Assembly: GCA_965213925.1 (NCBI GenBank)
Contig: OZ243927.1
Span: 832,001-896,000 of the forward strand
Origin: Trueperaceae bacterium
GTDB lineage: Bacteria; Deinococcota; Deinococci; Deinococcales; Trueperaceae
DNA length: 64,000 nt
Direction: 5' to 3'
Below the pieces are notes generated by a model. The model had not been told where the DNA came from. It did not search any database and was given only the letters and a program-made list of their open reading frames with translations. Below, piece by piece: positions 15,651-62,907 of the stretch. The first letter of the stretch is position 1, and each line of letters starts with the position of its first letter. Both the position numbers and the translations under genes were made by a program.

Positions 15651-15682
15651 TTATGCAACGAACCGGGCCGTTCGCGATCTAA
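15651..15682. repeat. 13-6-13 palindromic site, degenerate copy 1
   Basis: TTATGCAACGAAC-CGGGCC-GTTCGCGATCTAA. Confidence 0.55.
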
Positions 15683-15686
15683 AACC

Positions 15687-15718
15687 TTGTGCGTGAGATG
15701 CGCGCGTCTCTTGCAGAA
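15687..15718. repeat. 13-6-13 palindromic site, copy 2
   Basis: TTGTGCGTGAGAT-GCGCGC-GTCTCTTGCAGAA. Confidence 0.9.
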
Positions 15719-15975
15719 GACTTCAGCTATCTGGTCGCCGTAAATATGGTCCGCGCTGCTGAGCAACCGGCCTGACTCGAGCAGGTGCTCCGCCTTCAGC
15801 TACGTACTTGGCGTAGTTTTTGCTCACATAGACGATGTTTTTAAGTTCACACGGTGCAAGTAGCGTCACATCGGAGAGCATCACGGTAAGACCGCTGCGT
15901 TCAACCAGCAAATTTGTTAGAAGATAGACGGTGCTACCCTTCAATTCTCACCAATCCACGCCGTTTTCGTTAACA

Positions 15976-17157
15976 TCAGGTTTCTTCGTCTATAAAAAGT
16001 ACATCGCGCACGAGACTGCGGCTGTCCGCCTGACCGCCAAGCGAACCCGCCAGGGTGCCGAACGCGGAGACGAACAGGCTCAGCTTGATATGGTCGAGCG
16101 TTCGCACCGCCGGGTCTACGGTCGGCCACGTCTCCATAAGTTGGCGCGGAAAAATCGTAGCGACGCCCAAGTAGACGAGCGCGGCGAAGGCGGCAAAAAT
16201 AAACAGCGTCGTCAGCGTAAGACTGAGCAGGATAGCCGCCCCGGTGACGACGCTCGACTCGGCTAAACGTCGGCCCCTGCGCCGGGGTGCGCCGAAAGCG
16301 AAGGCGCGGTAGAGCGCAAACGTTCCCACCGCTACGGACACACCCGCAAACAAGATGAGTTGGTACAGCTCGACGGTGCTTGCTACGTCCCACATCTCCG
16401 GGCTGAAAAACACGACGATGATAACCGACAGCGCTGCGGTAATCAGGGTAGGCAGGCGCGTCGCCAAACGCAGCGGGTTCGCCCTGGCTACAGCGTGAGC
16501 GATACTACGCCAGTCGCTCCGAAGCGTGCGCAGCACGAAACCCCAGCGGTTGCCCTGGCTCGTGCGCTCGTGCGCTTCACGCGGCAGGGCTAGGCGCACG
16601 TGGTTCCGCTGCTCGGGCGTCAGCGTCGCCATCGCGCCCAAATCGTCTACGCTTTCAAAATCGTACATCGCGTTGTGCGCCTCGTCCGAGTGCGGCAAGT
16701 TGAGAAGATGACCGAGCGTATGCAGCAGGAGGTGATTTAGGCGCTGCACGGTGAGCGCCTCGTCCGCTTCTTCCCCCCAAAAAGCGGGCTCGAGCCGCTT
16801 CGTCGAGATGACGCCGATGTTGGTCAGCTGACTCGGCAGGGCGAGGGTGTAAGAAAGTGTGGTGGCGGCGAGGTCGACTTCAGTGACGATGAGGAGAAAG
16901 TCGGCGTTACGCTCGAGTTTTTCGCTCACGCCGAGGCGCAGAAAGTCGAGCGGCGCGTAGGCTCCGGCGGTCGGGGTGAGGTGCGGTCCGTCGAAACGGA
17001 GTAGGTCAACACGCAGCCCTAGTTCGGTGCCAAGCGCCTTGTCAAACGCCGTCACCGCCTCGTTCGCCAGCCTCTCGAAACGCTCCGAGTGCTTGCCCTC
17101 CACGTCTATCGTCATCACACCGACGACGTACTCACGGCTCGAGGGGGTCTTAGACAT
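15976..17157 (-). CDS. Zincin (archaemetzincin-like) domain fused to a 4-TM membrane domain
   Basis: HTLGHLLNLPH..NAMY (HExxH-like with E replaced by T); C-terminal TM helices. Confidence 0.7.
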   Translation of the reverse strand: MSKTPSSREYVVGVMTIDVEGKHSERFERLANEAVTAFDKALGTELGLRVDLLRFDGPHLTPTAGAYAPLDFLRLGVSEKLERNADFLLIVTEVDLAATTLSYTLALPSQLTNIGVISTKRLEPAFWGEEADEALTVQRLNHLLLHTLGHLLNLPHSDEAHNAMYDFESVDDLGAMATLTPEQRNHVRLALPREAHERTSQGNRWGFVLRTLRSDWRSIAHAVARANPLRLATRLPTLITAALSVIIVVFFSPEMWDVASTVELYQLILFAGVSVAVGTFALYRAFAFGAPRRRGRRLAESSVVTGAAILLSLTLTTLFIFAAFAALVYLGVATIFPRQLMETWPTVDPAVRTLDHIKLSLFVSAFGTLAGSLGGQADSRSLVRDVLFIDEET

Positions 17158-17579
17158 GGTTGCTCACTAAGCTGAGTATACGTGACGCGCCTGTGCCAAT
17201 TCGGGACAGTTCCCTCAATCAGAAAATTTCTTACGCTAAGGCAAGCTGCCCCGTTTACAGCATTCGGTTCGTTTTGATCAGTTGTGTCGGGAACGTTCTA
17301 CTTGTGAACTAGACACTCAAACCGTCCGAAGAGCAAAGACAGGGCAGCTACGCTTAGTGCAGCAAAGCTTATTCAGGACTCAACTTATTCGCTTACCGTT
17401 AATTTTTTCCAAGCAGGGAACTACCCCTATTTGCGGTGTCCCTACGCGGAGAGATGTTCACCGAGAACTTGATACGGTGATGGAGCTACAACACGCTTGG
17501 CTGAATGGCGAGCAAGGGCACCGGATTAGCGGTTCAAGGACCACTAGCGCCCTTTTGCTTACTCAAGCTGCATAAGTCC

Positions 17580-17611
17580 TTCTGCGAGAGACGCGCGCGT
17601 CTCTCGCATAC
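17580..17611. repeat. 13-6-13 palindromic site, copy 3
   Basis: TTCTGCGAGAGAC-GCGCGC-GTCTCTCGCATAC; perfect 26-bp palindrome at 17583-17608. Confidence 0.92.
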
Positions 17612-17656
17612 CGCTTATGCAACCCTCGGTCCGTAGTCCTACCTTGTAGATTTCAA

Positions 17657-18187
17657 TCACTCAGCCTGCTGTCGGCTTGGGAACCGCTGCTCGGCGACCT
17701 TACGCAAAAGACGGTGCAGCGTCTCCCGCTCGGTCCCGCTCAAACACCCGTAGGTATCACTATCCGCCGCGTCGATAATGCTCCTACTCTCTTTGAGAAC
17801 GCGCTCACCCCGAGCGGTCAGTACCAGCTCGTAATAGCGTCGGTCATGGGTGCTCTTCACGCGCTGCACGTAACCGAGCGCTTCTAAGTCGTCTACAAGG
17901 CGCACCACGTGGGTGCGGTCCAAGCCTAGGTTCTGACTGATGGCGACCTGTGAGCGATGCTCGCTCTCGGCGATGAGCTTCATCACGCCAAGCTGACGCG
18001 CGTCGATGTGAAGCGGCTCCAACATCTCCTCCAGGACGAGCTGCGCCATCTGCGCGACGTAGCTCAGTACGTACCCCGTCTCCGACGCCAGCGTCTCGGA
18101 GAGGTCGTGAGAGTTGAAGTAGAGGGGCGGCGCGGGCACGCGATTCCGTTTAGGGACTGCTCGAGCATCTTTTGAAGCCTCAGACAT
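17657..18187 (-). CDS. MarR family regulator
   Basis: LGLDRTHVVRLVDDLEALGYVQR...DRR..LTARG. Confidence 0.9.
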   Translation of the reverse strand: MSEASKDARAVPKRNRVPAPPLYFNSHDLSETLASETGYVLSYVAQMAQLVLEEMLEPLHIDARQLGVMKLIAESEHRSQVAISQNLGLDRTHVVRLVDDLEALGYVQRVKSTHDRRYYELVLTARGERVLKESRSIIDAADSDTYGCLSGTERETLHRLLRKVAEQRFPSRQQAE

Positions 18188-18890
18188 GGGCTAGTCTACA
18201 CGTCGTGCGCCGAACCACTCTCATGTGGGTAGCCCTGCGCAGGTACGCGAGCAAGCGGTGCTGCATTTCAAAGGTCTCCAAAAGCACGTCTCGAAAACCC
18301 TTGTCCGTTACCTCGTCGTCGCGGAAATGTCGGATGGTCAGGTACTGGTTGAGCCGCAGCAGGTGAATCGCGGGGTGGTCAGTGCTGTAGCCGCGCGGCG
18401 CGTTTTTAAGGCTGTCCTCATCGTCTAGAACGTCAGAAAACACCTTGCGAAAGGCGTCGTTGTCAACGAGCTGCTCGAGTTCCTCCGGCTTGTCATGGAT
18501 GCACTCGCGAATGGTACTTAGCACCTCGCGCTTAGGCGAATGAAGCCCGCCGCCAGCGACGCTCCCGCCGGGCGTGATGTTGAGGTAGTACCCCGGTTCG
18601 ACCTCCCCTAGAGGCGCAATGACCGCCATGATGTACGTTTTGAGCGGCGCGGCGTTGTCAGGGTGAAAGCGCGTATCGCGGTAGATGCGGGGCAAGCTCA
18701 CGACGCTGCCGCCTCCTAAATCCTTGCGCAGGCGTTCGTCGAAGGGGGCGATGTCGACTGCGACACCCTTGATACTCTGCTCGAAGGCAACTTTCATCGC
18801 CTTATAGTCGTCTTTACGCTCGTTGAACCAGTCCTTGGTGTTGTTTTGCTCGAGCTGGCGGAAGAACTCGAGCAAGGTCGGGTCGATCAT
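18180..18890 (-). CDS. DUF2461 / TIGR02453 family protein
   Basis: FFRQLEQNNTKDWF, RIYRDTRF, LKNAPRGY..DHP. Confidence 0.85.
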   Translation of the reverse strand: MIDPTLLEFFRQLEQNNTKDWFNERKDDYKAMKVAFEQSIKGVAVDIAPFDERLRKDLGGGSVVSLPRIYRDTRFHPDNAAPLKTYIMAVIAPLGEVEPGYYLNITPGGSVAGGGLHSPKREVLSTIRECIHDKPEELEQLVDNDAFRKVFSDVLDDEDSLKNAPRGYSTDHPAIHLLRLNQYLTIRHFRDDEVTDKGFRDVLLETFEMQHRLLAYLRRATHMRVVRRTTCRLAHV

Positions 18891-18900
18891 GCTGCCTCTA

Positions 18901-20184
18901 TCATATTGCGCCTCGGTCGGTATCTCCCCCGCGTAAGTTCAGCATCTTGTCCATAATGACCTCCCCGCGACCAGGTTCACTCCAAGGGCAGACCTCGATA
19001 CAGATCGCGCAGCTCTCGTTGGCGACGAAGTAAGGTGCGCAGCGGTCGAAGTTGATAAACCACCGCTCCTCACCTCGGACCATCTGTTTGGTTTCGAAGA
19101 TGGCTTGCGGCGGGCAGTTGGTCGTGCAAATCTGGCAGGACATGCAGAAATCGTCCACGCCTATGTCGATAGGTACATCGGGTTCCAGGGGCATGTCCGT
19201 AAGTACCGTCGCTAGCCGCACGTTAGAGCCGTAGTCCTTGGTGATCATCGAGTTGTGCTTGCCGAGCTGCCCTAAGCCCGCTGCAATCGCGATGGGCACG
19301 TGTTGCACTTCAGACGTACCGGGCGCGATGTTCGTACACGCTATCGCCGGATAACCCCGACTGCGGATGTATTCGGCAAGACGGATCGCTGCCAAGCCGA
19401 CCTTACGGTAAATGCGAAAGACCTCGGCATGCGTGCGTATCTGGGTCGGGTAGCGCATCTCCTCGCGGTCCATCGGCACAGCGATAGAAATGGCGTACTT
19501 AAACGAAGGCTCGAAACCGTCGAAGAACCACTCATCTTGAGGCTCGGTGATGCCGACTAGAGCCGCGCCGTGCTCCTTGGCAACCGCTTTGACTCGTCCG
19601 CTCATCGCTTTGGGGCTCGTCACCGTCTCCCGCCGCCTCGCGACCGCCCCGACGCGCCGCCGGTCATCCCAGAACAGACGTACAATGACACGGGTAATTC
19701 GCCAAGATGTGAGCGTGAGGAGTACCTGGTGCAAGCCGCCCCAAGCGTAGCTAAAATCGAAGAAGAGGTAGTAGGGCCGACGCTTTTCTGTTTCGTCCAG
19801 ACCGCTTATGACCATACCCGAGACGGGCGGTTTGCGGTAGGCAAAAGGATAGCTGGGCTCCGGGTAGGACGGAAGGGCGACGTCGGGGGACTTGCGGGGC
19901 GGCAAGTCAGTTTTGGGCGACAGGTCCGCGCTGATGTTCGGCAGTGTGTCAAACTGCTGCGTCTCCGCGTCTGGCGGCTTTGGGAGGTCTTCGATCCAGA
20001 TGGTCTCTCCCCTCGAGATTTTCCGCCTGAACTGCCACTTTTGCCACTCACCGACCGTCCAATAGGCGAGTGTTGCCCCGGCGGCAAGCCCGACGCTTCT
20101 CAGCATCCTCCCCGCTATACGGACGTGCTGAGCGAGCTGTTCGGTACAGGTTCGGGGACGTTCAATCTTGACTGCCATCCACAT
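18901..20184 (-). CDS. Reductive dehalogenase/QueG-like 2x[4Fe-4S] protein (paralog 2)
   Basis: AGLGQLGKH, YGSNVRLATVLTDMP, FCMSCQICTTNCP and CAICIEVCPW. Confidence 0.8.
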   Translation of the reverse strand: MWMAVKIERPRTCTEQLAQHVRIAGRMLRSVGLAAGATLAYWTVGEWQKWQFRRKISRGETIWIEDLPKPPDAETQQFDTLPNISADLSPKTDLPPRKSPDVALPSYPEPSYPFAYRKPPVSGMVISGLDETEKRRPYYLFFDFSYAWGGLHQVLLTLTSWRITRVIVRLFWDDRRRVGAVARRRETVTSPKAMSGRVKAVAKEHGAALVGITEPQDEWFFDGFEPSFKYAISIAVPMDREEMRYPTQIRTHAEVFRIYRKVGLAAIRLAEYIRSRGYPAIACTNIAPGTSEVQHVPIAIAAGLGQLGKHNSMITKDYGSNVRLATVLTDMPLEPDVPIDIGVDDFCMSCQICTTNCPPQAIFETKQMVRGEERWFINFDRCAPYFVANESCAICIEVCPWSEPGRGEVIMDKMLNLRGGDTDRGAI

Positions 20185-20256
20185 CTCCTCTAGGTTGGGG
20201 CTTTTTACAAAAAGTCAATACATCTTCGTTACGGTAATGTGACAGGAAAGTCACCT

Positions 20257-21525
20257 TCACGTTTCGGCACTCCCGCGGCGGCTGAGCATCTTGTCCATGA
20301 TGACGTTGCCGCGCCCCGGTTCACTCCACGGGCAGACCTCGATGCAGATGCCGCACCCCTGGTTGGCTGAGAAATAGGGGACGCACTGATCGAAATTGAT
20401 GAACCACCGCTCTTCACCCCGCACCATCTGCTTGGTCTCGAAAATGGCTTGCGGCGGGCAGTTTGTCGTGCAGACCTGGCAGGACATGCAGAAGTCGTCC
20501 ACACCGATGTCCACGAGCTGGTCAATTTCCAAAGGCAGATCAGTCAAGACCGTCGCGAGCCGCACGTTCGCGCCGTAATCCTTTGTGATGATCGAGCCGT
20601 GTTTGCCAAGCTGCCCCAACCCGGCTTCAACCGCAAGGGGAATGTGTAGCACCTCCGTCGTGCCAGGAGAGATGTTCGTGCTAGCCCTGGCGGGATAGCC
20701 TAGGCTGCGGATGTGTTCGGCGAGGCGGATGGCGACGCGCCCCACGTCCTCGTAAATGCGAAAAACCTCCACCATCGCACGCTCGCTCGGCGTGTAGCGC
20801 ATCTCCTCGCGGTCCATTGGCACGGCGACGGAGATGGCATATTTGAATGAGGGCTCGAAGCCCTCGAAGTACCACTCGTCGCGCGGCTCGGTAATACCGA
20901 CTAAAACCGCGCCGCACTCCTTCGCGACCTCTTTGATTCGTGCACTCATCGCCGCTGTATCAGTAACCGGCTGCTGGTCTTTCCAGACCGCCCCGTCACG
21001 CCGCGCGTTATCCCGGAAGATGCGCACGACCGATCGCACGACGCTGAGTGGGATCAGAGTAAAAAACACTTGCGTCAAGCCGCCCCAGGCGTAGCTAAAG
21101 TCGAAGAAGAGGGGGCGAGGTCGGCGCTTCTTTGCCTCGTCTAAGCCGCTGATGACCATGCCCGACACGGGCGGCTGCCGGTAGGCGAAGGGATAGCGGG
21201 GTTCGGGGTAGGACGGCAGGGCGACGTCGGAGGACTTGCGGGGCGACAGGTCGGTTCTCGGTGATAAATCAGCCTGAATATTCGGTAATTCGCCGAACCG
21301 CTGCGTCTCGGCGGAGGGGGGCTTGGGCAGGTCCTCGATCCAGACGGTTTCGCCGCGGGCGCTCGAGCGCGTCAGGTGCCGCTCCTGCCAACGTTTGAGC
21401 GTTCGGCTGGCGAGCGTCACGCCTAGGGCTAAGCTCGTGTTCACTAGCTTGTGCCGCGCGGCGCGAATGCGCTGGGAGAGGTGCTCGGCGCGGGTTTTCG
21501 GATGGTCATTTTTGGGAAGAGTCAT
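20257..21525 (-). CDS. Reductive dehalogenase/QueG-like 2x[4Fe-4S] protein (paralog 1)
   Basis: AGLGQLGKHG, RLATVLTDLP, FCMSCQVCTTNCP and CGICIEVCPW. Confidence 0.8.
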   Translation of the reverse strand: MTLPKNDHPKTRAEHLSQRIRAARHKLVNTSLALGVTLASRTLKRWQERHLTRSSARGETVWIEDLPKPPSAETQRFGELPNIQADLSPRTDLSPRKSSDVALPSYPEPRYPFAYRQPPVSGMVISGLDEAKKRRPRPLFFDFSYAWGGLTQVFFTLIPLSVVRSVVRIFRDNARRDGAVWKDQQPVTDTAAMSARIKEVAKECGAVLVGITEPRDEWYFEGFEPSFKYAISVAVPMDREEMRYTPSERAMVEVFRIYEDVGRVAIRLAEHIRSLGYPARASTNISPGTTEVLHIPLAVEAGLGQLGKHGSIITKDYGANVRLATVLTDLPLEIDQLVDIGVDDFCMSCQVCTTNCPPQAIFETKQMVRGEERWFINFDQCVPYFSANQGCGICIEVCPWSEPGRGNVIMDKMLSRRGSAET

Positions 21526-21540
21526 GGTAGTTTGCGACGG

Positions 21541-22950
21541 TTACGCCGCTCGAGCCTCGCGCTTCACCATGCTAGGCTCGACCTCCGCCGCCTCCAACAT
21601 CGCCTCGACGGATGCGAACTTCGTGCGCCACCGCCTGTTCTGCAAACCCCCTGCACGTCGCTCCGCCCGGTCGATGCGCCGCCAGTCCTCCTTAGTCACG
21701 TAGCGCACATCCTTCTCCTCTAAGAGCCGGTTCACCGCCTCAGGTTCGGGGTTTTGTGCACGGGGCAGGCTCGGCAAGTCTTCGAGAAGATGCCGCACGG
21801 TCTCCTCGGCGTCGGTTTTGTTCGTACCGATGACGCCCGAAGGTCCGCGCCGCACCCAGCCGGAGGTGTATTCACCCGGTACGACCTCACCATCTGAAGT
21901 CGTCACACGCCCACCCTCGTTCGGGATGACGCCGCGCTTATCGTCGAAGGGCACGTCCGGAAGAGGCTGGCTGCGGTAGCCGACCGAACGCAGCAGCAGA
22001 CCGGTATCCAAGTGCTCAAGCTCACCCGTGCTAACAGCCGAGAGGCGGTCGCCCTTGGGCTCGAGCCGGTTCTTTTCCAACTTGAGCCCTTGTACCCGCC
22101 CCTCTCCTAGCACTTCAACCGGCGACCTGAAGAAGTGAATATGGACGCGCTTCTCTGCGCCGGGCTTGCGCTGATCTGCGTATTCGGTAAACAGCGCCAC
22201 GTTTCGCCGGGTCTTCTTCGCTTCTAATTCATTTTTGAACGTGTCCTCTTGGTCGGACTCGAGGTCCGCTGGGTCCACAACCATATCTACATCAGGCAGT
22301 TCACCCACTTCGCGCAGCTCTTTGGGCGTAAAATTCGCCTGCGAGGGTCCGCGCCGCCCTAAGATGTGAACGTCGGTGATGCTCGAGCGTCTAAGCGCGT
22401 CCACCGCATAGCCCGCCATGTCGCTCTCGGCGAGCGCGTCCGGGTCCTTGAGGAGTGCCCGCGTCACGTCCAGCGCGACGTTGCCCATGCCGATGATGGC
22501 GGCGTGCTGCGCATCTAGGGGCGGATTCAACCCTGCGTGGTCCGGGTGCGCGTTGTACCACGCGACGAACTCGGTGGCGGAGAGGCTGCCGGGGAGGTCT
22601 TCGCCAGGGATGCCCAAGGACTTATCGCTGCTCGCGCCGACCGTATAGATGACCGCGTCATAGTGCCGCTTTAGCTCGCCATGCGTGATGTCCTGACCGA
22701 ACGTGACGTTGCCGAAGTAGCGCACCGCCTCGTGCTTCAAGATGAGGTCGAAGGTGACCGACTTGGACTTCACTACGGGGTGGTCGGGCGCGACGCCGTA
22801 GCGAACTAGCCCGTACGGACTCGGCAGGCGTTCGAAGAGGTCCACGGACACCTTGCCCCCATTTTTCAGTAGGGCGTGCGTCGCGTAGAAGCCTGCCGGA
22901 CCTGCGCCGATGATCGCGACGCGCAAAAGGCGTGAGGAATGTTTAGACAT
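21541..22950 (-). CDS. fprA: NADPH-ferredoxin reductase (FprA/adrenodoxin reductase-like)
   Basis: GAGPAGFY, GLVRYGVAPDH, GMGNVALDV, GRRG, GWVRRGPSGVIGTN. Confidence 0.88.
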   Translation of the reverse strand: MSKHSSRLLRVAIIGAGPAGFYATHALLKNGGKVSVDLFERLPSPYGLVRYGVAPDHPVVKSKSVTFDLILKHEAVRYFGNVTFGQDITHGELKRHYDAVIYTVGASSDKSLGIPGEDLPGSLSATEFVAWYNAHPDHAGLNPPLDAQHAAIIGMGNVALDVTRALLKDPDALAESDMAGYAVDALRRSSITDVHILGRRGPSQANFTPKELREVGELPDVDMVVDPADLESDQEDTFKNELEAKKTRRNVALFTEYADQRKPGAEKRVHIHFFRSPVEVLGEGRVQGLKLEKNRLEPKGDRLSAVSTGELEHLDTGLLLRSVGYRSQPLPDVPFDDKRGVIPNEGGRVTTSDGEVVPGEYTSGWVRRGPSGVIGTNKTDAEETVRHLLEDLPSLPRAQNPEPEAVNRLLEEKDVRYVTKEDWRRIDRAERRAGGLQNRRWRTKFASVEAMLEAAEVEPSMVKREARAA

Positions 22951-23395: not shown

Positions 23396-23427
23396 TTGTG
23401 CGGCAGACGCGCGCGTTCGCCGCGTAA
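23396..23427. repeat. 13-6-13 palindromic site, copy 4
   Basis: TTGTGCGGCAGAC-GCGCGC-GTTCGCCGCGTAA. Confidence 0.85.
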
Positions 23428-25438: not shown

Positions 25439-25470
25439 TTCTGCGTGAGATGCGCGCGTTCGTCGCACAA
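25439..25470. repeat. 13-6-13 palindromic site, copy 5
   Basis: TTCTGCGTGAGAT-GCGCGC-GTTCGTCGCACAA. Confidence 0.9.
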
Positions 25471-25595: not shown

Positions 25596-27434
25596 ATGGA
25601 GCAGTTCGACCGGCGGACGTTTCTGAAGCGGATGGGCGTGACGAGTTTAGCGTTGGCGACGCCCTATATCCTCACAGCGTGTAGCGAGTTAGAAAGCGTA
25701 CCCGCTTTTAGCGGCGAAGATGAGGATGTCGCGGACGAGTTCGCGGCGCTCCAAAAAGACCGTGATCCGAAAGAAGTTTTTAGCTTGTCGGTAGCTTCGG
25801 GCGACCCCACGCCCTCAGGCGTGATGCTCTGGACACGCATCGACCCAGCGGCCTATAAGAAGAACAAGAAGCTCGCCTTCGAGGTGGCGCGTGACGCGGA
25901 CTTTGAGGACGTCGTGGCGAGAGGTCGCGTCAAGGGCAGTGACATCACGCCGGAGAACGACTACACAGTTAAGTTGCACCTAGACGGCAAGCTACCTCCC
26001 AATACGCGCCTCTACTACCGCTTCGCCTACCGGAAGACGGGCAGCCAAGTCGGGCGTTGTCGCACAGCTCCGGCAAGGGGTGAGGAGACCGAACGCCTCA
26101 AGTTGGGCGTCATCACCTGCCAGGACTACACCAACGGCTATTACGGAGCGTTGGAGCAGCTCGCTCAGGACGACGTGGACTTCGTCGTTCACCTGGGAGA
26201 CTTTATCTACGAGACTTCGGGCGACCCGCGCTTTCAGCGTCAACCTTTTGAGGACCGCACCTTTTCCTTGCCGAGCGGCGGCGAAGCAGCGCTGAACTTA
26301 GAGGACTACCGCTTCATCTACCAGCTCTACCGGAGCGACGCCTTTTTGCAGACGCTCTTGGAGCAGCACACCCTCATCGCCATTTGGGACGACCACGAGA
26401 CCGCTAACGACTGCTACTGGGACTACGCGGACGGCTGCGTAGGCGTGCCCGACCACCCGTACGCGGACGCACCCCGCGAAGTTCGCAACGCCCTCGCCTT
26501 CGACGCGCGGCGGGCTTGGGCGGAGTATCTGCCTGCTAGAGTCACCTTGCAAGAGGACGCTGATGACCCGCGCCAGTTTTTGGACATCCGCCGGACGTTC
26601 GCCTTTGGCACGCTGCTCGAGCTGTTCATGACCGACGAACGCTCCTACCGCGATCCACCCCCTTGCGGCACCGGCGACGCAGGCGAGCGCTACTTCACGC
26701 TGGGCTGTCCCGAGCAGGATGACCCGGAGCGCAGCATGTTAGGGCCGCAGCAGCGTGAGGGACTTCTCAGCGGCATCAAAAATTCCGAGGCGACCTGGAA
26801 GGTATGGGGTAACGAGGTCTTTCAGGGACCTCTCAAAGTCAATCTGGGTGACGGAGCCTCTCTTTACCTCAACCTGGACGCTTGGGACGGCTACGAAGCC
26901 GAACGCGAGCGGATCATGCGAGAGCTGAAAGAGGCTAACGTGAAGAACCTAGTCGTGCTGACGGGCGACCTGCACACCTACATCGCCTCGTACCTCAAGG
27001 TGGACTACGGTAGAGACCCCTTCAACATTGACCCGCGCAACCTTGTCGGGGTGGAATTCATGACGCCAGCGGTCACGTCAGCGAACTTTGCTGAACTCAT
27101 CGGGGTAGGTGGGGACAGAGGTTCGTTCGGCGAGTCGTTCGGAACCCAGAATTTAAGCACGCAGGAGGTCGAGCGGTTGGAGCAGCAAGGGTTAGAAACC
27201 CTCGTGCGCATCACCAACCCCCATATTCAATTCTTCAACTCCGAGGACTGGGGCTACTCCACCGTGGAGTTCACAACCTCTTACTGCGAATACACCGCTT
27301 ACAAGGTGGACAAGTCGAAGCCCGAAGGAGATGACAAAGTGATCTTGAAGCGGCTGCGCGTGCCGGTGAACCGAGTGCGCATCGAGGATACGACCTCAGC
27401 TGGCACAGGTATCTCGCTCGTCACGTCGGCTTAG
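25596..27434 (+). CDS. phoD: Alkaline phosphatase D, Tat-exported lipoprotein
   Basis: DRRTFLK Tat motif, LTAC lipobox, VASGDP, HLGDFIYE, WDDHE, DAWDGY, LTGDLH. Confidence 0.92.
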   Translation: MEQFDRRTFLKRMGVTSLALATPYILTACSELESVPAFSGEDEDVADEFAALQKDRDPKEVFSLSVASGDPTPSGVMLWTRIDPAAYKKNKKLAFEVARDADFEDVVARGRVKGSDITPENDYTVKLHLDGKLPPNTRLYYRFAYRKTGSQVGRCRTAPARGEETERLKLGVITCQDYTNGYYGALEQLAQDDVDFVVHLGDFIYETSGDPRFQRQPFEDRTFSLPSGGEAALNLEDYRFIYQLYRSDAFLQTLLEQHTLIAIWDDHETANDCYWDYADGCVGVPDHPYADAPREVRNALAFDARRAWAEYLPARVTLQEDADDPRQFLDIRRTFAFGTLLELFMTDERSYRDPPPCGTGDAGERYFTLGCPEQDDPERSMLGPQQREGLLSGIKNSEATWKVWGNEVFQGPLKVNLGDGASLYLNLDAWDGYEAERERIMRELKEANVKNLVVLTGDLHTYIASYLKVDYGRDPFNIDPRNLVGVEFMTPAVTSANFAELIGVGGDRGSFGESFGTQNLSTQEVERLEQQGLETLVRITNPHIQFFNSEDWGYSTVEFTTSYCEYTAYKVDKSKPEGDDKVILKRLRVPVNRVRIEDTTSAGTGISLVTSA

Positions 27435-27540: not shown

Positions 27541-27573
27541 TTCTGCCACGAACGCGCGCCGTTCGTGGCAGAA
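27541..27573. repeat. Palindromic site, copy 6 (7-bp spacer)
   Basis: TTCTGCCACGAAC-GCGCGCC-GTTCGTGGCAGAA, perfect arms. Confidence 0.85.
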
Positions 27574-28919: not shown

Positions 28920-28951
28920 TTCTGCAAGAGACGCGCGCGTCTCTCGCACAA
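28920..28951. repeat. 13-6-13 palindromic site, copy 7
   Basis: TTCTGCAAGAGAC-GCGCGC-GTCTCTCGCACAA. Confidence 0.92.
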
Positions 28952-45543: not shown

Positions 45544-45639
45544 GTTCCCATTTTAGGGTACAACCGTTCTTGGACGCTTCGACGGCGGTGGAAACGACCG
45601 CTCGGCTTCTCACGGTAGCCTCTTTTAAGGAGGCACAAG

Positions 45640-46098
45640 ATGAAGCTCATAGAAAACCTTACGCGTGCCCTTACAGACCACCGAGATGACATGGCGCGTC
45701 GCCGCTGTTACCGACGCGCCTTGAAAGACGCCCTCGCAGCCTTTGAGACCGATCACCGCCTCTGGGTTGAAACACATTTCGACCTCAAATTCTTGACCGG
45801 GCGAGGCGCAGAGGCGCTCGAAGCGAATGATGCACAAGCGCTTGCCCAAGCCTGGACCTCGCAGTTCCGTTACCGGGATGAAGCTCGGCGCGGCGATGAT
45901 GTGCGCCGCCTCGTCCTGGCAGCGGCGACCTTCCTCGAGCTGTTCAAGCGGGCCGAGGCGACGTGTGCAGATGGTTTGAGGCAACAGCAAACTTCAGAGC
46001 TTAACGTTCGTACTTTCTGGAATTCATTCAGTGCTTCCGCGAGACGAAGCGGGCTTAACCCAAGCACCCGTGACAAGGGATGCAAACGTCAGGGGTAA
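45640..46098 (+). CDS. Hypothetical protein
   Basis: RBS AAGGAGG; divergent from the ArsR gene. Confidence 0.6.
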   Translation: MKLIENLTRALTDHRDDMARRRCYRRALKDALAAFETDHRLWVETHFDLKFLTGRGAEALEANDAQALAQAWTSQFRYRDEARRGDDVRRLVLAAATFLELFKRAEATCADGLRQQQTSELNVRTFWNSFSASARRSGLNPSTRDKGCKRQG

Positions 46099-46120
46099 GA
46101 GATGTGAGCCTGGCAGGACC

Positions 46121-46152
46121 TTCTGTGCGAGTTGCGCGCATCTCGCGCAGAA
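46121..46152. repeat. 13-6-13 palindromic site, copy 11
   Basis: TTCTGTGCGAGTT-GCGCGC-ATCTCGCGCAGAA. Confidence 0.85.
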
Positions 46153-47127: not shown

Positions 47128-47145
47128 CCCTCGTTTTCCTGGACT

Positions 47146-48929: not shown

Positions 48930-48991
48930 ACGTGACTCCCTTCGAGCCGTTCGTTAGGGTGACCTGCTATGATTTGTCCTAACAAGGACGG

Positions 48992-49030
48992 TATGTCACC
49001 ACTGTTGACAGTGTAAACAGTGGTGACATA
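48992..49030. promoter_or_regulatory. Probable TetR operator
   Basis: Perfect 15-bp arms TATGTCACCACTGTT...AACAGTGGTGACATA between the divergent SDR and TetR genes. Confidence 0.75.
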
Positions 49031-49065
49031 AGCTGTCAAGGGGATTAGCGTATGGGCGAACAGAT

Positions 49066-49662
49066 ATGACGAAACAGAGCTATCATCACGGCAGCCTGCG
49101 CGAAGCGCTTATAGATACAGCGCTGGAGAGTTTAACGTACCAGCGGGCGGGCGAGATCAGTCTGCGTAAGCTGGCAAGCAAACTCGATGTGGACCACACT
49201 GCCGTGTACCGCCATTTCAAGAACCGTGATGCGCTCCTGGCGGCGATGATCGAAGCGGGCTACCGCGACCTCAATAAGGCAATGGTGCAGGCGTGGCAGA
49301 CCGACGCGCCCTGGCGTGAGCGTGTCAAGCTCGTGGTCAAGGCGTACGCCGAGTACGCACGGGCTAACCCCAACCTCTTCGAGATCATGTTTGGCGGCGC
49401 GCTGGATGAATCGAAATACCCGGCCCTGCAGCAGCTCTCTGTCGAGAGCACGAACATGTTCGTCACCTACATCGAGCAGGCGCAAGCGGACGGGGTGTTG
49501 ACAGGTGATGCGCCGGACCAGGTCGCTCTGAACGTCTGTATGTTGTGTCACGGGCTCGCGCAGATGGTGGTGGGCAACCAGTTCAACGGTCCCTTCGCCA
49601 AGGCGGACGAGGACCTAGACGGACTGGCTGAGGGTGTAGTGGCGGGTATGAATTTGCAGTGA
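49066..49662 (+). CDS. TetR family regulator (WHG type)
   Basis: YHHGSLR, ISLRKLA..AVYRHF, LCHG. Confidence 0.9.
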   Translation: MTKQSYHHGSLREALIDTALESLTYQRAGEISLRKLASKLDVDHTAVYRHFKNRDALLAAMIEAGYRDLNKAMVQAWQTDAPWRERVKLVVKAYAEYARANPNLFEIMFGGALDESKYPALQQLSVESTNMFVTYIEQAQADGVLTGDAPDQVALNVCMLCHGLAQMVVGNQFNGPFAKADEDLDGLAEGVVAGMNLQ

Positions 49663-49724: not shown

Positions 49725-49767
49725 TTCTGCAAGAGACGTGTGCGAGACGCGCGCAACTCTCGCAGAG
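49725..49767. repeat. Palindromic site, copy 12, with internal 11-bp duplication
   Basis: TTCTGCAA-GAGACGTGTGC-GAGACGCGCGC-AACTCTCGCAGAG. Confidence 0.8.
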
Positions 49768-51693: not shown

Positions 51694-51725
51694 GTGTGCG
51701 ACAGTAGCGCGCGTTCGTCGCAGAA
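51694..51725. repeat. 13-6-13 palindromic site, copy 13 (next to the recombinase)
   Basis: GTGTGCGACAGTA-GCGCGC-GTTCGTCGCAGAA. Confidence 0.85.
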
Positions 51726-51815
51726 CACCCACTGCCCTTCAAAAACGATTCAAAGCAGACCTCCGTGCAGACTACAGCTCGGAGGTTTTTTATGGACGAA
51801 TAAGAGACACTCATA

Positions 51816-52682
51816 TTGACAAATTGTGTTGAGGAATACCTGAAAGCTCGTAATCTGGACGGCTACAGTGACAAAACGCTCTATTCCTACAGGCTGCATC
51901 TAAATCGTTTGACCGCAGATTTGGGCAATGCCACTCCTATCGACATTATCAAGCTCGAACATCTACGTTCTCACCTCACCAGCCTGACGCATCTGCAAAC
52001 CTCAAGTTTGGCGAACAAGGTCCGCGCCCTTAAAGCCTTTTTCAAGTGGCTCTACGAGGAGGAGATATTGGAGCGCAACCCCGCACTGAAGCTGAGGGAG
52101 CCGCGCTTACCCGCGAGAATCCCTAAAGCGCTTTCGGTTGAAGAAGTTGAGCTGCTGCGTGACGCCTGTGAGAGTTTATTGGAGCACGCCTTAGTCGAGT
52201 TCTTCTTCGCCACCGGCTGCCGTGTGAGCGAAATTCACCAACTGGACCGCATCGACCTCGACTGGGTGCGGCGCAGCGCAGTCGTGCTGGGCAAGGGTAA
52301 TAAGGAGCGCGAGGTGTACTTCGGAGCAAAAGCCGCGCTGTGGCTCAAACGATATCTCGACAGCCGAACGGATAGCTCTTTGGCGCTATTCGTTACGAAG
52401 CGACGAAGACGCCAGCATAGCGGGGCTTTAGAGCATCAGCGTCTCAGCACGTCGCAGATACAACGCATCTTTAAGCGTGTGGCGCGGCGGTGCGGCTTGG
52501 AGGAGAAAGTAACCCCTCACGTGCTGCGCCACACGCTCGCAACTCTTCTGCTAAACCAAGGTGCACCGATCGCTGCCGTGCAGTCCATCCTCGGGCACGC
52601 CTCGCCCACCACAACACAGCTCTATGTCAACCTCTCCGGTGAGTCGCGGCAGATGCTCTACAAAAGGCATTTCCCGCAGTAA
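51816..52682 (+). CDS. Tyrosine recombinase (XerD-like, not IntI)
   Basis: N-terminal SAM-like domain; complete catalytic set TGCRVSE, GKGNKER, HVLRH, LGH, TTQLY. Confidence 0.92.
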   Translation: MTNCVEEYLKARNLDGYSDKTLYSYRLHLNRLTADLGNATPIDIIKLEHLRSHLTSLTHLQTSSLANKVRALKAFFKWLYEEEILERNPALKLREPRLPARIPKALSVEEVELLRDACESLLEHALVEFFFATGCRVSEIHQLDRIDLDWVRRSAVVLGKGNKEREVYFGAKAALWLKRYLDSRTDSSLALFVTKRRRRQHSGALEHQRLSTSQIQRIFKRVARRCGLEEKVTPHVLRHTLATLLLNQGAPIAAVQSILGHASPTTTQLYVNLSGESRQMLYKRHFPQ

Positions 52683-52730: not shown

Positions 52731-52955
52731 ATGGCTGACAGCAATTTTGAGCGCACCTTCGCGGCTTTACCTCCCGACCTCAAGCAAGAGGTCCAAGACT
52801 TTGCTGAGTTTCTCCTTTCCAAGCGATCAACGCAAGATAGAGCTGTGAGTGACGCTCACCCGCTCGCGAGCTTAGCGGGCGCATGGCGCGACGAGCCGCT
52901 CTCGGACGAAGACCTCTTGCCTGAACGAACGCTCGGACGCGGCGTCGATCTCTAA
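52731..52955 (+). CDS. DUF2281-like antitoxin
   Basis: LPPDLKQEVQDFAEFL...LAGAW; precedes a PIN toxin; TATAAT 6 bp before ATG (leaderless). Confidence 0.75.
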   Translation: MADSNFERTFAALPPDLKQEVQDFAEFLLSKRSTQDRAVSDAHPLASLAGAWRDEPLSDEDLLPERTLGRGVDL

Positions 52956-52962
52956 ATTCTAG

Positions 52963-53364
52963 GTGCTTTATCTTCTCGACACGGATACGCTTGTTTTCTA
53001 CTTGCGGGGACGCTCCGAGGTGAGACAGAAAATTCTCAGCGTCCCTACGGATGATCTCTGCACTAGCGCTATGTGCATCGGCGAGCTTTATTATGGTGCG
53101 GAGAAATCTCAGAAGCAAGTGGAGCGAAAAGCCGAGGTCGACCGCTTGCGTGCGGCGCTGATGAGCATCCCTCTGCAAGGGGCGGTGATGGAGCGCTTCG
53201 GTCAGTTGAAGGCGTCGCTCGAGAAGCAAGGCGAGCGGCTAGCTGACGCCGACTTACTGATCGCGGCGACAGCTCTGGAAAACAACCTCACGCTCGTCAC
53301 GGGCAACCTCAAGCACTTCCAGCGTGTGCAGGGGCTGAAGATGGAGAGTTGGATCAAGCGCTGA
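52963..53364 (+). CDS. vapC: VapC PIN-domain toxin
   Basis: YLLDTD, GELYYGA, DLLIAATA, LVTGNLKHF. Confidence 0.92.
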   Translation: MLYLLDTDTLVFYLRGRSEVRQKILSVPTDDLCTSAMCIGELYYGAEKSQKQVERKAEVDRLRAALMSIPLQGAVMERFGQLKASLEKQGERLADADLLIAATALENNLTLVTGNLKHFQRVQGLKMESWIKR

Positions 53365-53385: not shown

Positions 53386-53417
53386 TTATGCGTGAGACGC
53401 GCGCGTCTCTTGCAGAA
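53386..53417. repeat. 13-6-13 palindromic site, copy 14
   Basis: TTATGCGTGAGAC-GCGCGC-GTCTCTTGCAGAA. Confidence 0.92.
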
Positions 53418-53438: not shown

Positions 53439-53873
53439 TTAAGAGGTGGTTGCATCCTTCGGAGGGTAACGCCCTATTGCCTGCAAAACCTCCCGCTCCA
53501 GCAGCCTTTCGCGGACGTTGAACTGGAGCAGGCGTTCGGTGACGCGGGCGATATCGGTGAGCGGCATGATCTTCACCTGGTCGAGTTCGAAATGCTCAGC
53601 CCACAGGTCCACTCGCGGATTGTAAAAGCGCGCGAACGCCTCTGTCTTCCAGTCGATCGAGCCGATGTCGCTTCCCTTAGCGCGATTACAGACCACGCAG
53701 GCGAGTGCTAGGTTGTCCTCTTCGGTCCGCCCGCCGTGTTTCTCGCTGATGATGTGATCGATTTGCATTGCGTAGTAGCTGTCGTCTTCGTGGATCAAGC
53801 AGTATTCGCAGCATCTATTCGCCTTAGCTAAAACGCGCTGGCGCAGGTCCGCCGGGATATACGTTTTACTCAC
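53439..53873 (-). CDS. HNH endonuclease
   Basis: CEYC, IDHII..HGG, NLALACVVCNRAKG. Confidence 0.9.
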   Translation of the reverse strand: MSKTYIPADLRQRVLAKANRCCEYCLIHEDDSYYAMQIDHIISEKHGGRTEEDNLALACVVCNRAKGSDIGSIDWKTEAFARFYNPRVDLWAEHFELDQVKIMPLTDIARVTERLLQFNVRERLLEREVLQAIGRYPPKDATTS

Positions 53874-54099
53874 TCAGCAATTGCCTAGCTTTGGCTTTCG
53901 CTAAGCGCATAACGTGCTCGAGCTGCATATACTGGTCGAGCTCGCGACGCTCGTCCTGGGATAACCCCTGCGCCTTCTCTTGTTCGATAAGTTCGGCGAC
54001 CCGTGCTTGTGCGCCCTCAGAGGGGCGGAAGGAGACAACCCCAGAGGGATTTGCACCTGCGATCAGGTCAACGATTTCTTGGTAAGCGAGGGTTGCCAT
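53866..54099 (-). CDS. Small helical protein, putative antitoxin for the HNH
   Basis: FRPS..AQARV..L..K...ELD.Y..LEH; overlaps the HNH gene; leaderless TATAAT at 54106-54111. Confidence 0.7.
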   Translation of the reverse strand: MATLAYQEIVDLIAGANPSGVVSFRPSEGAQARVAELIEQEKAQGLSQDERRELDQYMQLEHVMRLAKAKARQLLSE

Positions 54100-54131
54100 A
54101 ACGCTATTATACCTCAGCTTGAGAAATGGGA

Positions 54132-54163
54132 TTCTGCGTGTGATGCGCGCGTTCGCCGCACAA
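54132..54163. repeat. 13-6-13 palindromic site, copy 15
   Basis: TTCTGCGTGTGAT-GCGCGC-GTTCGCCGCACAA. Confidence 0.9.
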
Positions 54164-54216: not shown

Positions 54217-54678
54217 CTACCGTTTGAGCAGTCGCGGGTCATAGTTGAACGCTTGCGCCTCGCCGATCTCTACTCGCCCAGCATCGGGATGGTTCGGATT
54301 AAAAAGGTAGTTCCGTTCCGCCGCGACCACACGGCTCGGCACCGCGAGGAGCACCGACGCGTTACGCTTGACCCAAGCGTCCCCGATCGCTTGAGTGGTA
54401 GGTAGACCTTCAGGCTCAGCCCAGTTCTCGGACAAGCTCTCAGGCGACACGTTCAGTAGAAGCGTTTCGCCAAAGGTAATTGGAATAGCTGTATAAGGCT
54501 CAAGCGCACGCTCGTAGTCGATGTGGACGAGTAGCTCCAAAGCTGCGAGGGCTAAACTGCTCGCTAGATAAACGACTGCCGTGCCCGCTGAGTTCCAGCG
54601 ACCTCCGTAACGCCGCGCCCCCTCACCGTCGAATGCGGATGCAGCCCATTTAGGCGCGACGAGCCGCCAGGCTTTCAG
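54217..54678 (-). CDS. RES-domain NAD+ phosphorylase toxin
   Basis: AWRL..FDGEGARRYGGRWNS..YLASSLALAALE..VPS..ERNYLFNPNHP; start extended to CTG overlapping the antitoxin stop. Confidence 0.88.
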   Translation of the reverse strand: MKAWRLVAPKWAASAFDGEGARRYGGRWNSAGTAVVYLASSLALAALELLVHIDYERALEPYTAIPITFGETLLLNVSPESLSENWAEPEGLPTTQAIGDAWVKRNASVLLAVPSRVVAAERNYLFNPNHPDAGRVEIGEAQAFNYDPRLLKR

Positions 54679-55124
54679 TAGAACACTCCATGCTCAACAC
54701 GGTGTAGTAGATGCTCGACCTCGCGCGCTCCCAGCTCACTATGGGCGAGTTCGAAAGGCGTTTGTCCGCCAAAAACTGGGCGCGGTGTCTGCATCCAACG
54801 CCGAGCTAAATCTTTGTCTCCAATGACCTGAGTCGCTAGAGCATAGAGTTCGGCAAAGCGCACCAACCGCTCGGATGGGCTGGACTCGAGTGGCGCACCC
54901 GCCTCTTCACGCCGCTGAACTGTGCGTAAGGAGAGACCAACTGCCTTCGCGAGGTCCTCGCGGGCAATACCTGCAGTCTTGCTGAACTGATCAAAGGCAG
55001 CAGCCGATAAACCTGAGCGCACCGTGCGGATACGCTCGAGCGGGGTACTCTGCGCCAGACCTAAAGCTGCATCCCAGATGCTCTGCTCCGCCGGGGGTGG
55101 GGTGAAATCGAAAACAGCATCCAT
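54675..55124 (-). CDS. Xre/MbcA/ParS antitoxin
   Basis: GLSLRTVQRR..SERLVR..ARRWMQTP..FGGQTP..G.REVE..L.RVEHGVF. Confidence 0.88.
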   Translation of the reverse strand: MDAVFDFTPPPAEQSIWDAALGLAQSTPLERIRTVRSGLSAAAFDQFSKTAGIAREDLAKAVGLSLRTVQRREEAGAPLESSPSERLVRFAELYALATQVIGDKDLARRWMQTPRPVFGGQTPFELAHSELGAREVEHLLHRVEHGVFY

Positions 55125-55265
55125 AGCTAACCTCCAGACTACTGTCAATAATTATACGACAGAAGTCGCGTCAAGGCAGACTATTTATCGACATGTATGG
55201 TCAGTACACCTAACTGTCTTGAGGGGCTGATGTAGCGTATGCATGACCGCCCAGCCTACGCCTCG

Positions 55266-55297
55266 TTCTGCGGTGAACGCGCGCGTTTGGCACACAC
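55266..55297. repeat. 13-6-13 palindromic site, copy 16
   Basis: TTCTGCGGTGAAC-GCGCGC-GTTTGGCACACAC. Confidence 0.8.
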
Positions 55298-61469: not shown

Positions 61470-61494
61470 CTCACCGGTCAGCGATTGCTGTCAG

Positions 61495-61524
61495 GTTCAG
61501 GGGGAGGCGCACCTCCCCCTGAAC
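61495..61524 (+). terminator. Hairpin terminator
   Basis: GTTCAGGGGGAGG-CGCA-CCTCCCCCTGAAC. Confidence 0.65.
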
Positions 61525-61660
61525 TATTGTTGACCCTGCTGTTAACTCCGTCAAAGACAGCCGTAGTCTTCGAACAGGGCTGCGTATCAAACTGTAGTGG
61601 GTGCGTTCGTAGCACCGTCTCGAGCGCAATCTGCGCCGCTCAATCTCGAAAGCAGCGTTT

Positions 61661-61777
61661 ATGTCACCTCTTAAATTACTCGTCCCTTTAGACGGCACTG
61701 ACTTCAGCCAACGCATCATCCCTCACCTCACGCGCCTTTTTCGCCCTGAGGATATCCAGGTGCACCTCCTCCCCTGA
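61661..61777 (+). pseudogene. Universal stress protein N-terminal remnant
   Basis: MSPLKLLVPLDGTDFSQR then early stop. Confidence 0.6.
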
Positions 61778-62007
61778 TCCAACCGCTTAAAGGCGAAGTC
61801 TGACCACGTCGTGCTCAACGCCGCCTAGCTTGTCGCGCTCCTAGAGCCGATGCACACTAGCACGCGGACCTGCTGGGACAGGTGCCGCTTTCAGAACGGA
61901 GAAGTCAAATTCTCCTATAACGATCGCCGTATCTGCGTACGTTCTGCTTCACGCGTGAACGCGTTTTAGGCCGAAATGCGTGGTCAATGACTGGCCTCCG
62001 CCTCCTT

Positions 62008-62517
62008 TCAAGACTTGCGCGTGGCGGCTCTTCGTATGTACACAGTCCACCCTCGCCGCCGGACCGGAACACCGGGCAGGCTGGGGATCAGCCGATCAGC
62101 GACGACACCGGTGACGACCGCGTAAACGGCTTTGTGCAGCAGGTCGATCGCCTGCTCGTCCAGCGGCCACGTCCACGGCGGTGCGACGACGCCCGTGGCG
62201 TTTTCCAGGGTTTGGTCGTTGAGCAAGCGCAGATTCAGAAACAGGAACGACCCGACCGGGCCGCGCAGCCCCCGCTCAGCCATCAGCCCGCGCGCCGCAC
62301 CCAGAAGGATGCCCTGACCCCAGTGCATGCCTCGGTTCAGCCATAGGCGTTCCTCGTCGGGCTTCTGTGCGAGCCCTAACAGCCGTTCTAGCGTGTGGGC
62401 TGGCACGTACGAATCCGGTCGGCGGGTGATCGCCTGCTCGAGCTTCTCAGCGGCGGTCATCGCCGCGACCCCGACCAGACCCGCCGCTAGTCCGCGCAGC
62501 GCCGCGTTCTTCATCAC
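62008..62517 (-). CDS. Membrane hypothetical protein
   Basis: GLAAGLVGVAAMT..EKLEQ, MHWGQG, LLHKAVYA; RBS GGAGG. Confidence 0.7.
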   Translation of the reverse strand: MMKNAALRGLAAGLVGVAAMTAAEKLEQAITRRPDSYVPAHTLERLLGLAQKPDEERLWLNRGMHWGQGILLGAARGLMAERGLRGPVGSFLFLNLRLLNDQTLENATGVVAPPWTWPLDEQAIDLLHKAVYAVVTGVVADRLIPSLPGVPVRRRGWTVYIRRAATRKS

Positions 62518-62875
62518 CTTACCTCCGCTCTACCGGTGTAGTAGTAGAGGTCCTTTTTCCGTATCGCCAGGTTGATATACAAAGTCAAAGCCGCCTCCCC
62601 CTTCTTTCGCTCATGATACGCAAGGGGCGTTCTCTGGACCTTGCGCCACAACCCATAGTCCGGCGGTTCAATCAATGGTGCAGAGAGTCCGAAGCAAGGG
62701 GATTGGTCCCGTTGGACACAATTAGAAGACATAGACATGGTTGGGGAGAGGATGGGGAGAAGGCAACCGCGTGCGACATCGGCAAGCGTCCTTTCCACGG
62801 TCAGTTCGCCGACATCTTGTCCGTGTTCAAAATCTTTAGGCGTGGGAACGGACCAAAGGCTGCCTAGGCTCTAGC

Positions 62876-62907
62876 GCAGGAGTTTAACGCGCGCGTTCGC
62901 TGCACAG
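62876..62907. repeat. Palindromic site, copy 17 (left arm degenerate)
   Basis: GCAGGAGTTTAAC-GCGCGC-GTTCGCTGCACAG. Confidence 0.65.

Follow-up and report, generated by a model that had tools for sequence, protein, structure and literature searches.

The 64,000-nucleotide stretch analysed here (henceforth the window) is the segment C1:832,001-896,000 of a Trueperaceae bacterium, where C1 is the chromosome and C6 a further contig of the same genome. Between positions 15651 and 62907 it carries single genes and small operons punctuated by an imperfect 32-bp palindrome, and among them lies a gene for a XerA/XerD-like tyrosine recombinase (51792..52682, forward strand; PF00589, E=4e-39). The original prediction, made from the sequence of the window, had listed about 17 copies of the palindrome in this interval. 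Related sequence is indeed present at all 17 positions, but only 13 copies are clean, three are damaged and the one at 15651 belongs to a second class with a polar spacer. The main site comprises a 13-bp arm, the spacer GCGCGC and a further 13-bp arm. Its clean copies, to which no strand is assigned, lie at 15687..15718 (46 bits), 17580..17611 (46 bits), 23396..23427 (38 bits), 25439..25470 (44 bits), 28920..28951 (48 bits), 35150..35181, 39770..39801 (40 bits), 44763..44794, 46121..46152 (38 bits), 51694..51725 (36 bits), 53386..53417 (47 bits), 54132..54163 (40 bits) and 55266..55297 (33 bits); since the site matrix was derived from these 13 sites, their scores, spanning 31-48 bits, are circular. 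The damaged copies are an overlapping double site, 49725/49736 (49725..49767), a site with a one-base insertion beside the spacer (27541..27573) and a half-decayed one (62876..62907) that retains just the spacer and right arm.

The units bounded by these sites agree in content with those of the original prediction, except that its 'ArsR pair' is an ArsR-like gene with an open reading frame (ORF) of no assigned family. Its claim that the copies are intergenic also stands: an overlap with Pfam-supported genes of the window was looked for and none was seen. The leftmost cargo is an archaemetzincin-like gene (15976..17157, reverse strand; NF033823, E=2.5e-14, below the cut-off), followed by a reverse-strand module of MarR, DUF2461, two reductive-dehalogenase-like genes and a flavoprotein (17657..22950), of which contig C6 holds a 91.5% identical copy. 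Such tandem reductive-dehalogenase-like operons with MarR and DUF2461, whose genes are notable in a Deinococcota lineage, occur in three related copies in this genome (window 17657-22950, C6:1001-6578 and C1:2967011-2971228) and in two further copies in the arrays of the relative G056. Next come a PhoD module (25596..27434, forward strand), an operon of ArsR, arsenate reductase and MIP genes (39866-42760), the module of the ArsR-like gene and its partner (44776..46139) and a hydrolase/epimerase/SDR operon with TetR (46189..49662). The recombinase module extends from the site at 51694 to that at 53386 and includes a VapBC-like pair of DUF2281 and PIN genes (52731..53364, forward strand; Pfam). 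It is succeeded by a 746-bp module with an HNH gene and a small partner (53439..54099, reverse strand) and by an Xre-RES toxin-antitoxin module (54217..55148, reverse strand). The stretch 25596-37901 includes PhoD twice, EEP, two calcineurin-like phosphoesterases and GDPD modules, and an alkaline phosphatase adjoins a second recombinase copy elsewhere in the genome; thus, the cargo tilts towards phosphate scavenging. Further to the right, a truncated fumarate-reductase-flavoprotein-like ORF (56830-57780) carries at its start a 39-bp repeat in two identical copies 78 bp apart (56883-56999). A 698-aa ORF and smaller ORFs (29087-31183, 60681-61469, 62008-62798) yielded no Pfam or convincing NCBIfam match.

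A matrix scan of the entire genome recovered 82 sites scoring at least 15 bits, 80 chromosomal and two on contig C6. The reversed genome gave one match at this threshold and none at 20 bits or above, indicating that the repeat is not a product of chance. The chromosomal sites form seven clusters and two singletons covering 8% of the chromosome: 64 of the 79 inter-site gaps are at most 12 kb, whereas 5000 simulations of uniform placement gave on average 14.9 such gaps and never more than 26. The clustering that the original prediction proposed to look for is therefore found, rather than the even spread, like that of repetitive extragenic palindromes (REPs), which it had set against its own reading. 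The array it delineated is likewise real; however, it begins outside the window as part of a 20-site cluster (C1:801775-896514), one of the seven. Genome-wide, 8/80 site centres fall within ORFs of at least 150 aa, although such ORFs span 82% of the chromosome. Conservation within the site is highest in the spacer, which is GCGCGC in 74 of the 82, and the clusters have a host-like GC content of 58-60%. A 7.3-kb IMG/VR contig also contains a single sequence that matches the site pattern exactly (L113:3001-3032).

Further evidence comes from the sequences flanking the sites. We compared 250-nt flanks for a set of 173 sites, later enlarged to 191, drawn from this genome and from parts of G056, G035, G003, G038, G032, G054 and L002. 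Homology continued across the site in none of 106 homologous flank pairs from the smaller set and none of 121 from the larger, though neither the pairs nor the genomes are independent and some pairs are ends of insertion sequences (IS). Because the genomes of the relatives are generally rearranged, gene junctions inside the same modules served as a control: 40/83 were conserved on both sides in relatives, as against 0/63 matches at sites. Among 19 pairs with flanks at least 97% identical, the near arm agrees at 7.3 of 8 variable positions (perfectly in 14/19) while the far arm agrees at 3.3 of 8, close to the 3.75 of random pairs, and the drop in identity falls at the spacer, between positions 13 and 20. 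In 11 of 17 pairs with 200-nt flanks, the first difference lies at positions 9-15, directly fitting a crossover in the spacer, as the original prediction had envisaged for strain comparisons. In more diverged pairs the inner arm turns over faster.

Entire modules also recur from site to site. There are nine such cases, eight of which are length-matched within 8 bp and five inverted, bearing out the earlier claim that modules sit in either orientation. For instance, G035 holds an inverted copy of the module 44776..46139, with each end no more than 3 bp from a site centre and a length of 1358 bp in both genomes. Similarly, both ends of the Xre-RES module match an inverted module of G038 (L103:9030-10161), while the ends of the HNH module are matched in G038 and G003. 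The PhoD module and a 92% identical copy of the hydrolase operon each lie between two sites in G056, and the hydrolase, PhoD and Xre-RES modules all recur beside other neighbours. Individual sites tell the same story: the left side of 35150 is like G035 and G056 and its right side like a different G056 cluster; the left flank and left arm of 44763 are 99.6% identical at C1:3216246, which has another right arm; and homology to G056 stops at the damaged site 27541. These comparisons show each module to own, as far as sequence can tell, a 13-bp arm at each end, and modules have almost certainly been exchanged at the site centre, both within and between genomes. Contigs from four of ten sequencing runs, compared with 36500-56400, include long pieces spanning several sites, and no clear centre-to-centre skip was seen among the joints listed. 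Outside the arrays, we observed further intergenic repeats at synteny breaks (L118:2880-3190, L118:9300-9500, L119:19000-19240), which are abundant, numbering dozens of copies in G035 and G056; on the core side, the genus shows very little synteny.

The two arms of a site are apparently free to combine. They show no covariation (complementarity 7.87 versus 7.80 in permutations, p=0.26), there is one arm consensus, and arm classes combine in all six pairings. Seven of eight tested sites fold no better than their shuffles, the exception being 17580 (z -4.2), and Rfam returned no matches. The absence of covariation and the generally poor folding point to double-strand crossover sites rather than hairpins of the attC or REP kind; the prediction that the sites are unlike attC or canonical dif thus holds, as they are largely non-folding, without covariation and of 13-6-13 geometry with a single arm consensus. 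The genes flanking 79 sites are convergent in 30 cases, tandem in 39 and divergent in 10, where simple arithmetic for random end-joining gives about 31, 37 and 11. A global parity test for a hidden polarity met conflicts in 2/18 to 12/38 cycles under both models; the test is a weak one, as some cycles are trivial and missed decayed sites can create such conflicts.

The product of the recombinase gene has the invariant catalytic residues R136, K160, H235, R238 and H261, and the tyrosine, Y270, is present. Among solved structures it is nearest to XerA and XerD, and it scores below the cut-offs of the XerC, XerD and XerA models. Counted from the conserved ATG at which its relatives start, codon 4 of the gene is an in-frame stop; the frame is open from a TTG at 51816, giving 288 aa as compared to 296 aa in the relatives. 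Because of this stop, which no listed contig piece from the four sequencing runs settles, the copy may not be an active source today. A second copy (C1:3232342-3233205), 88.5% identical, has a site just upstream and Xre-RES genes after it, and has Asp in place of Gly in the LGH motif, which is otherwise invariant. Further damaged copies include one in G056 without the tyrosine end and one in G035 with a stop. Such frequent damage would fit selection against an enzyme for which 80 mutually compatible targets exist.

Close relatives of the recombinase (80-89% identity) are from Trueperaceae. It occurs in 5 of 61 genomes of the family, each of which has sites (67, 54, 31, 15 and 2), and in none of 50 site-free genomes; in all five Trueperaceae loci there are sites no further than 2.3 kb from its 3' end. 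The original prediction was thus correct in placing a recombinase next to the array, but the gene is itself module cargo, has a second copy elsewhere and is missing from five of the seven chromosomal clusters, and its neighbours vary between genomes. Toxin-antitoxin genes lie beside both copies here and in locus L005, and an HNH gene beside one G035 copy; beside the other five copies examined, no Pfam match supported a toxin-antitoxin linkage. A predicted leader hairpin (51758..51787, forward strand; z -0.4 to -2.5) pairs with the GGAGG ribosome-binding site, and the same stem is predicted in all five Trueperaceae copies folded, with no Rfam match. We also considered a host Xer protein as the enzyme; this is a less likely candidate, as the other Xer-like gene of this genome was found in 0/60 relatives. 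As to a route of transfer, there is a weak coupling-protein match at C1:2644430 and comEC at C1:787260, neither of which settles it.

Both the sites and the recombinase have relatives beyond the Deinococcota. A de novo search revealed 32-bp palindrome families adjoining recombinase relatives of 43-45% identity in Bacillaceae, and a matrix built from 21 of these sites gave 96 hits in 80 loci, five of them in Trueperaceae loci, and none in reversed sequence. The Bacillaceae spacers are polar (GCACCC, CTGCCC, GCCCCC, GCGCCC) and co-oriented, with 101 of 128 flanking genes following the polarity. Hence, the palindromic spacer accompanies random gene orientation, while the polar spacers accompany co-oriented genes. 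In 121 genomes of the order Bacillales, the site is found in 70 and the gene in 23, with 21 of these 23 gene carriers having the site. In a quick tree of 71 rows, which excluded loci that lacked a listed start or reached a stop in under 250 aa, all 12 loci with at least two sites fall inside one 24-row clade (Shimodaira-Hasegawa-like approximate likelihood ratio test, SH-aLRT, 94), as against 0/43 outside it. Thus, as the original prediction had anticipated of clustering with recombinase homologues, the sites track a recombinase clade. The Trueperaceae rows, seven in number, cluster with those of Alicyclobacillus and Sulfobacillus (93), which suggests that the system may have been acquired by transfer from a Bacillota relative with polar spacers. 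Arm complementarity in the Bacillus sites is 8.56 versus 8.23 in permutations (p=0.002), perhaps due to pooling of species, and mapping of breakpoints there found 22/26 flank pairs one-sided, though mostly at distant recombinase ends.

Palindromic GCATGC spacers mixed with polar CTGCCA or GCATCA ones, often in tandem pairs 45-72 bp apart, were observed in L075 (Gottfriedia), L117 and G063, and L117 packs 24 sites into 21 kb of a plasmid; such arrays are possibly intermediate between the Bacillus and Trueperaceae versions. Plasmid records with recombinase relatives (36-44% identity) number 17, of which 14 are from Bacillaceae or Sporosarcina and none from Deinococcota. The nearest relatives outside the clade (33-38% identity) lie between hsdS genes in all four loci scanned. 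In L048-L080, from Bacteroidota and others, 330-aa relatives are flanked by oppositely oriented type I restriction-modification hsdS genes, and these sets are probably specificity shufflons. In Paenibacillus brevis (L026), a relative sits between beta-helix and prophage tail genes, and its 17-row clade is without such sites.

Companion dyads and mobile elements adjoin some of the sites. The dyad at 15651..15682 (reverse strand), with the polar spacer GGCCCG, lies 36 bp from the site at 15687, and a second companion of this class, at 49771, follows the damaged double site. A scan of 346 site ends gave seven companion hits, all at an offset of 35; under relaxed rules 13 of 17 hits lie at offsets 35-36, and companions accompany 5 of the 82 sites of this genome. 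An IS630-family element (14284..15543, forward strand; transposase ORF 14404-15405, NCBIfam NF033545, 136 bits against a cut-off of 100) is stacked on a 103-bp MITE (miniature inverted-repeat transposable element) with IS-like ends (15548..15650, no strand assigned) at the edge of the 15651 dyad. This MITE is identical to copies at C1:3413527 and at 39667-39769 in the window; comparison of flanks shows the latter (39667..39769, no strand assigned) with a TTCT duplication at the outer edge of the site at 39770. The IS630-family element and the MITEs thus choose the outer edge of an arm for insertion and duplicate its first four bases; the stacked IS at 14284 likewise has a 4-bp duplication equal to the start of the arm. 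IS630 elements usually duplicate TA, from which the 4-bp duplication here differs. The 28 IS/MITE ends collapse to 15 elements, of which 11 abut a site or companion, two are stacked on such an element and two lie elsewhere, a count biased by seeds taken from site-adjacent copies. Copies elsewhere in the genome are at C1:825903, 2896416, 3228876, 3413527, 3417357 and 3490220.

Tyrosine recombinases bind the arms of their sites, synapse two sites as four monomers and exchange strands across the overlap. Against this background, the 32-bp palindrome is probably where crossover takes place in a gene-module system operated by a dedicated tyrosine recombinase of the Xer-like kind. One protein would bind both arms as double-stranded DNA, four monomers would synapse two sites, and strands would be exchanged across the 6-bp overlap. 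As GCGCGC is self-complementary and common to nearly all sites, any site could pair with any other in either orientation; hence, a single enzyme could excise individual multi-gene modules, insert them, turn them round or move them elsewhere, and such shuffling would need no attI, cassette promoter or alternation rule. The recombinase would itself travel as a module, frequently accompanied by a toxin-antitoxin pair and by a leader hiding its ribosome-binding site, act in trans on all clusters, tend to decay and leave orphan arrays behind. Its binding and recombination of the sites are putative, and their assignment to it, made from linkage and co-distribution, is likely to be correct; the original prediction had named the 51816 copy in particular, and here the clade-wide co-distribution speaks for the recombinase and the codon-4 stop against that copy. 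We lean slightly towards a broader proposal, namely an undescribed and widespread class of gene capture, separate from integrons and dif modules, whose hallmarks are a single recombinase clade and a double-strand site of 13-6-13 geometry. In Bacillales, polar spacers would keep small cassettes co-oriented; after transfer to Trueperaceae, the spacer would have become GCGCGC, yielding an any-to-any operon shuffler whose toxin-antitoxin-guarded recombinase might act in bursts and then decay.

Several observations weigh against reading the palindrome as the crossover site of this recombinase. Synteny among these genomes is poor overall, and 43 of the 83 control junctions break too. Of the 17 breakpoints, six lie off the spacer zone (four at 24-25 in the near arm, one at 3 and one just outside), and two of these six pairs retain the far arm completely or almost so; such cases, and the turnover of inner arms, are possibly due to gene conversion from one site to another or to the action of IS at site edges. 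Both recombinase copies of this genome appear impaired. Two relatives, G038 (12 sites) and G032 (5 sites), are without a copy at E<=1e-10, and 49/98 Bacillales genomes lacking the gene still have sites. Furthermore, the eight Alicyclobacillus and Sulfobacillus rows have 0-1 strict sites, and their weak sites are near background (40 hits versus 29 reversed, in 34 loci).

The orphan arrays and impaired local copies, together with the proximity of several clusters to tRNA-linked integrases, could be explained if the sites were crossover points for another enzyme, a host Xer protein or an island integrase, acting as XerC/XerD do on pdif sites, with the linked recombinase a passenger. We regard this as improbable: the gene and the site are found together in two phyla and in one tree clade, the only other Xer-sized gene was not found in the 60 relatives, and the arms are unlike the dif arms in the consulted passages of PMC10132070. 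Deinococcota possess strong repair systems, and with genomes generally rearranged and some off-spacer breakpoints showing replacement of an inner-arm block, one might also suppose that the palindrome is primarily a regulator box or a nucleoid-protein site, that modules are shuffled by RecA-dependent recombination or single-strand annealing via short repeats, and that the recombinase link is historical. This is very unlikely, since the arms, differing at about half of their variable positions, would offer poor homology and yet most breakpoints lie at the 6-bp centre; moreover, conservation peaks in the spacer, and convergent 3' ends at sites outnumber divergent promoters by 30 to 10. A box for a DdrO-type regulator was considered and dropped, as it explains neither the central breakpoints nor the Bacillus homologues. 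Least probable is a REP- or attC-like hairpin moving or recombining as folded single-stranded DNA, for although the consensus is palindromic, 17580 folds well and the site edge is a target for IS630 elements and MITEs, much as REPs are for IS, the arms do not covary, seven of eight sites do not fold, Rfam has no match, the sites are clustered and divided between modules rather than carried whole, and the enzyme lacks the IntI insertion.

A crossover system served by its own recombinase would constitute a further route of site-specific accessory-gene capture beside integrons and the dif modules of Acinetobacter, having an enzyme clade and a site of its own. It would organise about 8% of this chromosome, with cargo for dehalogenation, phosphate scavenging, arsenic handling and toxin-antitoxin functions. 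As more than half of the Bacillales genomes sampled contain homologous sites, it would also give a testable cause of hypervariable regions there. The polar version of Bacillus and the palindromic version of Trueperaceae would amount to a natural experiment on whether spacer symmetry sets directionality, and a 296-aa single-protein recombinase acting on a symmetric, degenerate site could serve genome engineering.

Among known systems, the dif modules of Acinetobacter come close. According to the parts of PMC13141974 and PMC10132070 consulted, pdif sites are 11-6-11 with distinct C and D arms and variable, matching spacers, and are acted upon by the host XerC/XerD. Both systems have multi-gene accessory modules that include toxin-antitoxin pairs, two-arm sites, crossover at a 6-bp spacer and modules in both orientations, and in both IS sit at the site edge, as does ISAjo2 at pdif sites (PMC10132070). 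However, on that partial account dif modules are forced to alternate C and D, so that with the required matching of spacers single modules cannot excise, whereas here arms of one kind combine at random. The 28-bp pdif differs from the 13-6-13 site with one palindromic spacer, as judged by eye against the pdif tables seen; the arms printed in PMC10132070 bear no resemblance to those here; and, unlike dif modules as so described, we find chromosomal arrays and a non-core, probably dedicated recombinase carried in a module. In the literature searched, mostly at the level of abstracts, we found no published description of the system; the main-text passages of two repeat surveys (PMC2267715, PMC3184786) print no sequences, and the Bacillus site may already be a catalogued repeat.

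The rAID-1 islands, in the portions of 10.1101/471110 and 10.1101/2025.05.03.651265 consulted, are confined to Bacteroidales and have a 5' recombinase with more than 44% identity to BF9343_RS08045, then at least two co-oriented genes with a GC content of at most 41%. They share with the present system a XerD-like recombinase and conserved intergenic motifs between acquired genes. Going by these descriptions, they are set apart by their immunity genes, as here the cargo is mixed, the orientations are both used, the GC content is host-like and the hosts are Trueperaceae. A rAID link was considered and rejected because the best Bacteroidota relatives (33-38% identity) sit in hsdS loci, where the tyrosine recombinases lie at a single locus, are about 330 aa long and lack 13-6-13 arrays. 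Unlike REPs with their RAYT transposases, the sites are clustered in a small part of the chromosome, split between modules and mostly non-folding.

Integrons combine an IntI recombinase, which has an insertion between the catalytic Lys and HxxR, with folding attC sites, an attI site, a cassette promoter and a fixed platform. The likeness lies in arrays of exchangeable cargo, linkage to a tyrosine recombinase, cassettes that hold toxin-antitoxin genes and arrays free of the enzyme, as in sedentary chromosomal integrons and clusters of attC sites lacking integron-integrases (CALINs). However, the IntI insertion is absent from our recombinase, which scores 112 bits in two stretches against TIGR02249 (cut-off 265) and aligns to XerD and archaeal XerA with a short insertion only, its best stretch with IntI4 being residues 203-273. 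There is likewise no attC folding, attI or common orientation, the cargo consists of whole operons with their own regulators, and the recombinase is itself cargo. In the geometry of its site, the system resembles loxPsym, the engineered variant of Cre/loxP whose palindromic 8-bp spacer removes directionality and which is used to scramble synthetic yeast genomes: the present system would likewise have one recombinase for two 13-bp arms around a palindromic spacer that removes directionality, although it is natural, with a 6-bp spacer, degenerate arms and an enzyme of the Xer type.

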